Assembly (NCBI RefSeq): GCF_018977255.1
Contig: NW_024704762.1
Coordinates: forward strand, 10,168,001-10,232,000
Reading direction: 5' to 3'
Length of the DNA stretch: 64,000 bases
Source: Callorhinchus milii
Lineage: Eukaryota
The position numbers were made by a program, and so were the translations under genes. The notes beneath the pieces are model-generated. The model saw only the letters and a program-made list of their open reading frames with translations, made no database searches and was not told the origin of the DNA. Positions 12,303-26,705 of the stretch are shown here, in pieces (the stretch's first letter is position 1; the number at the start of each line of letters is the position of its first letter).

Positions 12303-12471
12303 TCATAGATTCTCGTAAATGTCCTGCCCTTTGTGGGGGCTGGGGGGTCTCCTCCTGAGGGACGAATTGTTGATGTACAGTGGACCCTCGTCAGCCTCCA
12401 CCTCCGTCCTCGTCCTCTGCTCTGCGTACCTCCCCTCCTCAAGTGAATGTCGCTGCATCTGGGACATCTGG
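12303..12471 (-). CDS. Selectin-like A last exon (cytoplasmic tail)
   Basis: ccacag|C CAG ATG...; [55 protein letters not shown]. Same length (169 nt) and stop position as copy B. Confidence 0.82.
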
Positions 12472-15400
12472 CTGTGGACATAAACGTTAGAAACTTACAT
12501 TTAATCTAGTGTTTTGGGAGGCGGGGAGGGGATGGCGTGGCAGCAGGGGGTAAAAAGGCAGTTAACAACGTGCTAATTAACTAAACGAAACCCCTCAACC
12601 AACTCTAGGCTGTTGTTTAGGGGGTGTCAGCTGGTTAATTTCTTGCCCAAAAAGGGAAGGTGGAAGCAGATTTGATAGCAGCTTTGTAAAGGGAGTTGGA
12701 CAGGTACTTAAAAAGGAACAATGTGCAGGGCTGGGGGTGGGTGGTGAGGTAAGAGCGGGGGGAGTGGGACTAGTTGGGGTAAGAGCGGGGGGAGTGGGAC
12801 TAGTTGGGGTAAGAGCGGGTGGCGTTGGACTAGTTGGGGTAAAAGCGGGGAGCGCGGCACTAGATGGGGTAAGAGCGGGGGGCGTGGGACTAGATGGAGG
12901 GGAGTGGGGATTAGTTGGGGTAAGAGTGGGGGGAGTGGGACTAGATGGAGGGGAGTGAGGATTAGTTGGGGTAAGAGCGGGGGGAGTGGAGATTAGTTGT
13001 GGTAAGAGTGAGCGGCGTGGGACTAGATGGCAGCTCTTTCAAAGAGCCGCCACAGACAGGATGGGCCGAATGGCTGCGACTGAGTGAATCAGCAGAGCCT
13101 TCAAGAGTAGAGTTTCCACAGGAGGGAACACAGAGTCAGCAATGATTGGGTTCAGGGCCAGTGTTAACATGAGGGTAGGCTTAACCCCAACGCGAGGATG
13201 ACTAGGGGGGCAGTGGGGAGGAGGGCAGAGCCAGCCCCCAGCTGGTACTTTGGGGAGTTGACAGCAACACAATCTCGGGGGGAATGTGGAGACCGATCGC
13301 TGAGGACAATAGCTGCGCTGATTGTTGTTACTCACATATTATGGAGATGTTGGGTTCGCTCTGAAGGAGGTGAAAGAGAAAGAGGTTATTACATTACAAC
13401 ATCATTTACATTTACACAGCGGCTTTCACAGCGAGAGGACGTCTCAAAGCCCTTCACAACACTGGCTGGGCACCCGAGCTGGGGGGGGAGAATTGGGGGG
13501 AGGGAATTGAGACACTGCCTTAAACGAAGGGAGGGAGTGAGTGAGTTGGAGGAAGCGAATCGGAGGGAGGGAGGGAGTAGAGATTGAAACTGAACATGCA
13601 TGGAATACAAGCTCGACTAGTCCACTATTTGTGTAATATTTTAGAGCGAATTTCTGTGAAGGGAAGTGAACACGGCAGCCAATTCACACACATCAGCATC
13701 TCACAAACAGCCACTGACAACCAGCTTTATGGTGAACGACCAGGTTTATGGTGAACGACCAGGTTTATGGTGAACGACCAGGTTTATGGTGAACGATCAG
13801 GTTTATGGTGAACGACCAGGTTTATGGTGAACGACCAGGTGTTACCTTCGCCTTTTTTCCTCTTCCGAAAGCAGGTGATCACGGTCAGTAAGAGCAGGAA
13901 CATGGCTATGACTCCGACAATGACAGAGAGAACGATCAACAAGAGTTGGACGCCTGGAGTCACAAAACAATCACAGCGTTACTGAGATCAACTTATTAAG
14001 AATAATAGTAATCCTTAAACAGGTTAACACATCCCCACAAACTGCACCCCAATATAACCAGTGTAGTAGGGAAGGTACGTACATTGGACATCGTGTGAGG
14101 TCCAGTTCCCCGAGTCCTGACAAACCGTCTCAAGGTCACCGTGAAGAACATATCCCCCATCACACGAGAAATAGCAACTGGCGTTGTAGTGAGTGTCACC
14201 GTAGAGACCAGAACAGTTCAGCTCACCGTACTGTGGGGAATCCAGAGCCTGGCAGGGAACAGCTGGGAGGGGTGGACACAGACACACACACACACGGACA
14301 CACACACACACAGACACACACACACACAGACACACAGACACACACAGACACAATAAAACATGCCACACAACATACACCAAACACACCCACACCAATAAAC
14401 CACACACACAGACACACACACACACACACACACACAGACACACACACAGACACACACACACACACAGAGTAAAATTAGGTCACAAATTTTTTAGAAACTT
14501 TTTTTCTTCTAATATTACATATTAATATTACATTTCACACCAAACCTGGACCCTTATCAGTGTAATTAATGCATCACTATCACTATATGAGCCGCACTCC
14601 TCTGAGCTCTCACTGGTGACCGCCCCCCACTCCCCCAACCCCCAGATCGGCTGTTGTCCTGATGGCGTTGGTCGTGTAAAGAGATTTGCCGATAGAGCCA
14701 TAGACGTTTACACACCAGAAGGCGGCCATTCCGCTTGTCCTGCCTGTGCTCTTTGGGAGAGCAATCCTTTCAGTCCCACTTACCCGAGTTCTCTCTTCCC
14801 TTCAAATCCCCGATCTCCGCAAATTACCCCTTTTTGGATTTCGACCTGAGTTCCCTCTCGGAAGTGTAAGATTATATTTGTGATGTTTAATGTTTTTTTT
14901 AATGTTTTTTTAATGCTTTTAGAATGTAACCTACCCATAATCCGTTAATAAGATTGATGTGATTTAATGACTCGCTGACCAAGGGCTTAAAAGTAGCTGT
15001 GCTGGACGGGCTGAGGTCATCTTCTGATTACATTCCATATTTTCCTGGGAAGATGTTCACTCCTCTGAGATAATGAGAAATCGGGTCCTTGAGCATAGAT
15101 ATAAGTACAATGGACCACAAAAAGAATAGGCTGCAGCCTCAGACACCTGCCTATCTCAAGGCTGTGGGAGGCTGCCCAGAAGTTGCCCATATCTCTCTCT
15201 CGCAAGGCAGCCTGTGTAGGGTGGGGGCTATCTCTGTGACCAGGGGAGGGCCTTGCGTGGGGTGGGGACTGTCTGTCTCTGTGACAAGGGGAAGTGGAGG
15301 TAGAAACAAATAAAGGAACGATGTAACTTTGGAATAGTTGGAGTTGTGTAGCGGATCAGTGCATTTTCCAGTGGAATCCATATCGAATCTCCTGTAGCTA

Positions 15401-26300: not shown

Positions 26301-26705
26301 TCCAAGTTCTGCTGATGGGCCAGGCTGGGCTGGTGTGATCAGCAATGCCCTGGAGCACTGCAGACACGTCGCACTCAGGAACAAGACTACTGAGGGAGAC
26401 AGAGAGAGAGACTCTCACAGAGGATTGACTGGATTCCAACATCCCTTTGCCAAGCACATCACCTTAGCTTCAAGGAGAAGCACTTACCTCGTTTCTCTCA
26501 CAAGGAGAATAGTCATCATTTCTTGCAAATGGACGGCACTGAATTCAGTGGATTTAATATGATTGCGAAAATGGAAATGTAATAGTTTCGAGGTTAGGTT
26601 TTACAAAACCACAATTAATTGAAACAACGTTAAAAAAATGACAGCAGTTAAATAATAAATGTTCGTACCAGACAGGAGAAGAAACCGTGAGACGTTGGCA
26701 ATCAT
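21692..26705 (-). CDS. Selectin-like gene copy B (SP-CTLD-EGF-CCP-CCP-TM-ITIM tail), 394 aa, 8 coding exons
   Basis: join(26705-26669, 26202-25846, 24623-24516, 24092-23907, 23266-23087, 22965-22843, 22420-22396, 21860-21692) = 1185 nt. All introns are GT-AG and the frame is open. Confidence 0.88.
21885..22229 (-). mobile_element. Full-length tRNA-derived SINE
   Basis: Head GGAGTCCTGTAGCTCGGTGGTTAGAGC...GGTTCGATTCCC (A and B boxes), body, shared 3' tail and (TTA)n end. Sibling copies at ~29573-29848 and ~62138-62456. Confidence 0.85.
22396..22420 (-). CDS. Selectin-like B 25-nt micro-exon
   Basis: Same splice sites and phases as copy A. Confidence 0.8.
22843..22965 (-). CDS. Selectin-like B transmembrane exon (123 nt)
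   Basis: (C)[40 protein letters not shown]; 15 nt longer than copy A, in frame. Confidence 0.88.
23087..23266 (-). CDS. Selectin-like B CCP2 exon
   Basis: As copy A except YGRLNC versus YGELNC. Confidence 0.92.
23907..24092 (-). CDS. Selectin-like B CCP1 exon
   Basis: Protein identical to copy A (one synonymous change seen). Confidence 0.93.
24516..24623 (-). CDS. Selectin-like B EGF exon
   Basis: As copy A except GNCNEM versus GNCTEM. Confidence 0.92.
25846..26202 (-). CDS. Selectin-like B C-type lectin exon
   Basis: As copy A except ELHSDHK versus ELHNDHK. Confidence 0.93.
26669..26705 (-). CDS. Selectin-like B start/signal-peptide exon
   Basis: Identical to copy [14 protein letters not shown]|gtacga. 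Confidence 0.75.

Follow-up and report, generated by a model that had tools for sequence, protein, structure and literature searches.

A tandem pair of selectin-architecture genes in the elephant shark with near-identical ectodomains and divergent, tyrosine-bearing tails

A 64,000-nucleotide stretch of the elephant shark (Callorhinchus milii) genome (contig NW_024704762.1, positions 10,168,001 to 10,232,000 of the forward strand; hereafter the window) holds two genes of selectin architecture, copy A and copy B, which lie in tandem on the minus strand. Their ectodomains are nearly identical, whereas their last coding exons have drifted well apart, and the tail of B alone contains an immunoreceptor tyrosine-based inhibitory motif (ITIM). 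We tentatively favor, at a little short of an even chance, a graded pair: tandem copies of an old and separate lineage with selectin architecture, in which gene conversion would have kept the ectodomains alike while the last exon drifted, leaving B as a predicted inhibitory receptor and A as one that couples to Grb2 only. Both genes are already known through automatic annotation, under the name 'L-selectin-like'; what seems to be new is the separateness of their lineage and the make-up of their tails. No description of the lineage, the tails or the pair was found in the openly accessible literature, which omits most subscription papers.

Two copies of one selectin scaffold

Reading both strands and comparing the window with itself turned up the two tandem copies, whose exons and accessions are listed in Table 1. 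A sequence-only reading made beforehand had described two intact eight-exon genes, each encoding a signal peptide, a CTLD (C-type lectin domain), an EGF domain, two complement control protein (CCP) domains, a transmembrane segment and a tail. This description stands: all introns are GT-AG, the frames of the exon models are open without a stop, and the translations equal the two RefSeq proteins letter for letter. Each RefSeq model also has a second isoform that lacks CCP1; isoforms of this kind, like a tail exon of 25 bases, usually enter an annotation through transcript alignments.

The ectodomain introns are all in phase 1, with one domain per exon, and the last cysteine of CCP2 is encoded across a splice junction. 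Pfam places Lectin_C, EGF and Sushi matches on the lectin, EGF and second CCP exons. The first CCP exon has no Pfam match as framed, but it aligns to CCP1 of E-selectin and has six cysteines. The order CTLD-EGF-CCPn-transmembrane-tail is that of the selectins, and so are the six cysteines found in each of the two CCPs. Because the best relative of solved structure is E-selectin (E 7.8e-43) and the CCPs are of the six-cysteine type, we consider the scaffold of the pair to be that of the selectins.

Across the lectin domain, the EGF domain and the two CCPs, A and B differ at just N/S112, T/N146 and E/R243. Three substitutions over four domains give the close likeness of ectodomains in linked paralogues that is expected of paired receptors. 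The last exons, both 169 nucleotides long, are identical at 29/55 residues, and our recount agrees with the sequence-only reading on both figures. Residue 112 sits in the loop directly ahead of the WNS motif discussed below, and T146N costs one N-glycosylation sequon. At position 243 (window 23226-23228 and 14222-14224), all three adjacent bases of the codon are changed, likely in one event. Further along, the stalk of B has a five-residue insertion relative to A, and the transmembrane segments differ by three substitutions.

Patchy divergence along the two copies

The likeness between the copies varies from block to block. Substitution divergence is 0.9% from exon 1 to the lectin exon, 2.7% from EGF to CCP1, 1.9% from CCP2 to the transmembrane exon, 0.9% from intron 6 to the start of intron 7 and 4.9% in a proximal upstream block; it reaches 7-18% at three intron edges, 11% in a distal upstream block and 22.5% in the tail exon with its flanks. 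The five core blocks (2.0%) are thus far less divergent than the tail exon (p 7e-31), and synonymous changes follow suit, with 2/199 core sites changed versus about 11/39 tail sites (p 4e-8). Divergence is also uneven among the core blocks themselves (0.9-4.9%, p 5e-5). The homogenized block contains large indels in introns 2 and 4 and ends inside intron 7, the 3' part of which parts it from the tail exon. In the simplest reading, an older duplication would have been followed by conversion tracts of several ages that stop at the non-homologous part of this intron. The pattern, seen in one species, fits gene conversion as the upkeep of similarity; we do not claim that the locus originated by whole-genome duplication.

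Two other histories bear on this pattern. One recent hybrid event, in which duplication plus deletion joined the 5' part of one old paralogue to the tail of the other, would have left a young hybrid that had never been under selection as a pair. The sharp edge inside intron 7 and a core that is mostly 1-3% divergent would suit such an event. However, the core blocks differ significantly from one another and divergence in the flanking blocks is 5-18%, a sign that the tracts are of several ages, and we consider a single event quite improbable.

Alternatively, the assembly may have set in tandem two divergent haplotypes of one locus, that is, ITIM-plus and ITIM-minus alleles. A run of N lies between A and B and is not distinguishable from a gap. 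In addition, the variants at 112 and 146 occur in mixed combinations among the proteins of an older annotation: one has the A tail with B-type S112 and N146, and a partial protein has S112, I119 and T146. This mixing fits mis-assembly and ongoing conversion equally. Against an artifact, both tails are present in each of the two annotation sets, the 180 kb of flanks contain just two runs of N, of 25 bases each, and the 22.5% divergence of the last exon, the unalignable intron part and the kilobase indels far exceed what we take to be the usual difference between alleles. Furthermore, four samples from one study hold 0.60-0.65 of the sampled B-region words, whereas just 0.36 of B words occur in A; B-specific DNA is therefore present in all four samples, a comparison that says nothing of A in the same animals. 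Three further runs, taken by guess to be RNA, hold 0.18-0.21 of the words, near the region's exonic share of 0.20; they are given no weight here. We regard misassembled alleles as a slim prospect, and conversion between tandem copies as the history on which the graded pair is built.

Tail motifs

The two tails, each of 71 residues, have in common three tyrosines, two YxN sites, a terminal YENL and an RxxPxxP, which is an SH3-ligand consensus. By the motif definitions given in the accessible part of PMC2832619, B has one ITIM and A has none, and neither copy has an ITAM (immunoreceptor tyrosine-based activation motif). The ITIM is LLYTNV, at whose site A has PLYINN, and both copies end in QDIYENL, all of which the sequence-only reading had seen correctly. 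As a motif match, then, the ITIM is restricted to one member, as in paired receptors. A has a single YxxL. Neither transmembrane segment has a charged residue, so A is no classic partner of DAP12 or FcR-gamma, as was pointed out earlier. With neither an ITAM nor a charged transmembrane residue, A lacks an activating module of the usual kind, and its two YxN sites are also in B.

The ITIM-defining codons at -2 and +3 differ between A and B at two and three bases, and the Tyr and Asn codons between them are unchanged. These two are among the 10/55 codons with at least two changes (chance 0.03, for codons picked after seeing them). All three tyrosines and both +2 asparagines are identical in A and B (chance 0.034), as are the terminal seven residues (chance 0.008 at the C-terminal end). 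Two YxN sites arise by chance in 0.3% of B-tail shuffles and 0.6% of A-tail shuffles.

For comparison, we examined 34 proteins of canonical selectin type. Nine were dropped because they had no transmembrane call, and the remaining 25 gave a tail, one of them doubtful. Neither an ITIM nor an ITSM (the immunoreceptor tyrosine-based switch motif) occurs in any of the 25 (0/25), and their median tail length is 32 residues. The pair, with its longer tails and the ITIM of B, departs from the short, ITIM-free form of the selectins. The little-skate relative described below has a 57-residue tail with TIYDNV, which matches both the ITSM consensus and YxN. In an atlas search, the whole protein found selectin clusters at 0.95-0.96, and the tail part alone found nothing above 0.84.

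A lineage outside L-, E- and P-selectin

The known selectins are three short-tailed adhesion molecules encoded in a cluster. A search of the elephant shark's own genome placed the pair on one contig (C21) and, on another (C5), a separate CCP-rich cluster with three canonical selectin lectin exons; the pair thus lies apart from the tandem cluster where selectins are located. The canonical cluster (C5:8284959-8353870) consists of three genes: one, on the plus strand, has about 16 CCP exons, and the other two are on the minus strand. In one of its lectins, DEP-TP and WNN replace EPN and WND.

We searched 50%-identity representatives and drew relatives from the best 150 of 4357 matches, which were crowded by CCP-repeat proteins, and the range of the lineage obtained in this way is a lower bound. 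Among these 150 there are at least four close relatives, from bamboo shark, thorny skate, little skate and coelacanth, which are 41-49% identical to the pair. Apart from this species, word-index searches that used the lectin exon, the whole of B and the family alignment brought up just one skate and one canonical sardine selectin. In the relative from bamboo shark, three EGF domains follow one another, and the skate relatives have a single CCP each.

In a lectin-domain tree of 41 rows, A, B, the two skates, the bamboo shark and the coelacanth form a clade of six (support 99/94). The canonical selectin clade, with 26 rows, includes the three genes of the C5 cluster and excludes A and B (support 100/98). 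The elephant-shark branch is long (0.94). Because the outgroup is thin (nine domains, eight of them from one amphioxus protein), the tree shows the separateness of the clade and not its sisterhood to the selectins; kinship with the selectins rests on the EGF and CCP domains. Provided that the coelacanth protein is a true orthologue, the lineage would predate the split between cartilaginous and bony fishes.

Ligand site

The Ca2+ site of selectins is formed by EPN and WND, and E-selectin contacts sialyl-Lewis-x through Y48, E92, Y94 and E107. In an alignment with E-selectin, the pair has EPS and WNS in place of EPN and WND, and R, E, H and V at the four contact positions; E80, E88, E92 and N105 are kept. 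The selectin set of Ca2+ and sialyl-Lewis-x residues is thus broken in A and B. Among the four relatives, EPN is kept in 4/4 and WND in 3/4. The Ca2+ site has apparently been altered on the branch of this species, in which the Ca2+-dependent binding of sugars may be weakened. Binding of sialyl-Lewis-x by the lineage seems unlikely. An AlphaFold model built on the six-row alignment had a mean predicted local distance difference test score (pLDDT) of 59.9, with lectin loops below 50, and was not used.

These changes bear on the possibility that the pair is an ordinary adhesion selectin, a duplicate of L-selectin that serves leukocyte rolling on sialyl-Lewis-x. Its RefSeq name suggests as much, and so do the domain order, the two six-cysteine CCPs and the match to E-selectin. 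With SELL, SELE and SELP, as described in the accessible part of PMC5820395, the pair shares the signal peptide, C-type lectin, EGF, six-cysteine CCPs and single transmembrane segment, as well as one domain per exon with phase-1 introns, and two CCPs as in L-selectin. However, it lies on another contig among other neighbors, outside the canonical clade and cluster, and it has changed Ca2+ and sialyl-Lewis-x residues and a tail of more than twice the median length, with three tyrosines and, in B, an ITIM. We give the ordinary-selectin explanation hardly any chance. Because the tests of clade, locus, binding site and tail all failed, the pair is, as far as its sequence can tell, not L-, E- or P-selectin, and it should not be filed as L-selectin.

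A graded pair and its alternatives

In the graded pair that we propose, ligand clustering would lead a Src-family kinase to phosphorylate the tails, the ligand being probably other than sialyl-Lewis-x. Acidic residues ahead of the middle tyrosine and the RxxPxxP between the last two tyrosines are possible cues for such a kinase. The phosphorylated tails of both copies would then bind Grb2-type adaptors at their two YxN sites, and the terminal YENL could mediate internalization of both. In B, the ITIM would act together with the YxxL that follows 20 residues later to engage both SH2 domains of SHP-1/2 and so damp activation; the spacing from ITIM to second motif is typical of that in Siglecs and PECAM-1. 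In A, because the hydrophobic residues at -2 and +3 are missing, the Grb2 signal would proceed without the SHP brake, in the manner of DNAM-1.

Activation through pYxN and Grb2 without an ITAM or adaptor is described for DNAM-1 (CD226) in the accessible part of PMC4647266, and the D/E-I-Y-V/M-N of that receptor resembles the DIYEN of A and B. DNAM-1 and TIGIT are, however, Ig-family nectin receptors unrelated to the pair in sequence, and the likeness is one of motif. TIGIT combines a YxN-type motif with an ITIM. DCIR (CLEC4A) and other C-type lectins with an ITIM join an EPS motif to an ITIM, as B does; unlike A and B, they are type II membrane proteins without EGF or CCP domains.

Receptor pairs maintained by conversion are known, as the accessible parts of PMC5701461 and PMC2832619 report. 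The Siglec-11/Siglec-16 and CEACAM1/CEACAM3 pairs described there are tandem paralogues whose ligand-binding exons are homogenized by conversion and of which one has an ITIM; A and B, with conversion as their probable history, resemble them in genomic pattern. In these pairs, however, the partner has a charged transmembrane residue for association with DAP12 or an ITAM-like tail, whereas A has neither. Their ectodomain is of the Ig type instead of lectin-EGF-CCP, and the A and B tails differ from theirs in being copies of one exon.

The sequence-only reading had proposed paired receptors in which an inhibitory B is set against a non-inhibitory or adaptor-recruiting A, and it had described mammalian selectins as short-tailed and ITIM-free. 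Part of this proposal survives. Near-identical ectodomains, conversion-like divergence and an ITIM in one copy are features to be expected of a pair. But both tails derive from a single exon, instead of being an inhibitory module and an activating one of unrelated origin; most of their motifs are shared, YxN is present equally in B, and A lacks both an ITAM and a charge in its transmembrane segment. As to the selectins, the absence of ITIM and ITSM was borne out, but YxN is found in 7/25 of the canonical-type tails, and the pair belongs to a separate lineage. That the two copies send strictly opposite signals within one cell in response to a shared ligand seems unlikely to us.

Several observations weigh against even a graded pair, and most would suit a plainer explanation, in which A and B are redundant duplicates. 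They would do the same job in adaptor binding and endocytosis through the shared YENL, YxN and RxxPxxP; the ITIM of B would be drift, and the ectodomains would be alike through tandem conversion that stops where intron 7 ceases to be homologous. The tails diverge near neutrally, with a nonsynonymous rate (dN) of 0.29 and a synonymous rate (dS) of 0.37 (dN/dS about 0.8), which gives no hint of positive selection. Shuffling the B tail yields an ITIM by chance in 4.6% of cases, a seven-residue identical run appears anywhere in the tail in 20% of shuffles, and the best-kept tail residues are the shared motifs. The edge of the homogenized block coincides with the loss of intron homology, which explains the pattern without selection, and introns 5 and 6 match between the copies at more than 99%, like the exons. 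The presence of YxN in canonical-type tails, noted above, also belongs here. In addition, the pair is seen in this species only, and every relative turned up as a single gene model. The thorny-skate model stops short of the motif, and those of bamboo shark and coelacanth have no tail. The little-skate tail does not align significantly with those of A and B (shuffle p 0.69 and 0.62), and therefore cannot decide if the ITIM was present in the ancestor or to which tyrosine TIYDNV corresponds.

Redundancy does not readily account for five base changes in the two ITIM-defining codons, and the ITSM-type motif of the skate relative suggests that hydrophobic-Y-x-N-V matters in the lineage. We judge redundant duplicates to be possible, if on the doubtful side.

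A more far-reaching version of the graded pair would make this a fourth selectin lineage of early jawed vertebrates, a tyrosine-signaling immune receptor, as opposed to an adhesion molecule for rolling, kept in cartilaginous fishes and the coelacanth. In the elephant shark it would then have given rise to the first selectins that work as a pair, one copy inhibitory and the other activating through Grb2, with a shared ectodomain maintained by conversion and a two-residue switch around one tyrosine. We put this forward as a rather unlikely proposal. Even short of it, a lineage of its own whose tails are of the immunoreceptor type, and which occurs on both sides of the shark/bony-fish split, would broaden the roles of the selectin scaffold, and a candidate inhibitory receptor would join the short list from cartilaginous fishes. 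A and B also offer a natural two-residue experiment on the gain or loss of an ITIM beside a Grb2 site.

Locus and neighbors

Table 1. Features of the pair and its surroundings, in window coordinates
Feature	Position	Strand	Remarks
Copy A gene	12303..20008	-	8 coding exons, 389 aa; equals RefSeq XP_042198689.1
Copy A exon 1, signal peptide	20008-19972	-	
Copy A lectin exon	19516-19160	-	
Copy A EGF exon	18469-18362	-	
Copy A CCP1 exon	17927-17742	-	
Copy A CCP2 exon	14262-14083	-	
Copy A transmembrane exon	13953-13846	-	
Copy A first tail exon	13360-13336	-	25 nt
Copy A last exon	12471-12303	-	
Copy B gene	21692..26705	-	8 coding exons, 394 aa; equals RefSeq XP_042198709.1
Copy B exon 1, signal peptide	26705-26669	-	
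Copy B lectin exon	26202-25846	-	
Copy B EGF exon	24623-24516	-	
Copy B CCP1 exon	24092-23907	-	
Copy B CCP2 exon	23266-23087	-	
Copy B transmembrane exon	22965-22843	-	15 nt longer than in A
Copy B first tail exon	22420-22396	-	
Copy B last exon	21860-21692	-	
ITIM LLYTNV of copy B (Y371)	21755..21772	-	also YxN; ITIM as defined in PMC2832619 (accessible part)
PLYINN of copy A (Y366)	12366..12383	-	YxN kept; -2 and +3 residues do not fit an ITIM
Terminal QDIYENL of copy B (Y391)	21695..21715	-	YxN and YxxL
Terminal QDIYENL of copy A (Y386)	12306..12326	-	identical to B
Homogenized block of A	13172..20494	-	matches B 22232-27191; core 0.9-4.9% divergent; 3' edge inside intron 7
3' part of intron 7 of A	12498..13171	-	unalignable with B 21887-22231; parts homogenized block from tail exon
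Distal duplicated block	21135..21410	-	11% divergent from 27579-27850; AATAAA on minus strand in both
ARHGAP45/GMIP-type RhoGAP exons	4055-4720	-	directly downstream of copy A
BTB-PHR gene (BTBD1/2 type)	~31750-45100	-	first coding exon in 44491-45100 region, last near 31800
KLF9/13/16-type first exon	~56400-57200	-	long Pro/Ser/Thr/Asn repeat ahead of first zinc finger; no Pfam match

No third copy was found in 244 kb around the locus or among the candidates scored when the animal's own genome was searched. One flank holds an SBNO-family gene, the RNA polymerase subunit Rpb5 and a RhoGAP with GMIP-like FCH and RHG29/45 domains; the other holds the BTB-PHR gene and a KLF-like exon, which from its motifs we take to be of the KLF9/13/16 type. 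The neighborhood is presumably that of SBNO2-POLR2E-ARHGAP45 and BTBD2-KLF16 on human 19p13.3, and not the selectin cluster of 1q. The two members of the distal duplicated block lie behind different genes, that at 21135-21410 about 0.5 kb behind the stop codon of B and that at 27579-27850 about 4.1 kb behind that of the BTB-PHR gene upstream. B may thus rely on a poly(A) site duplicated from the 3' end of this neighbor.

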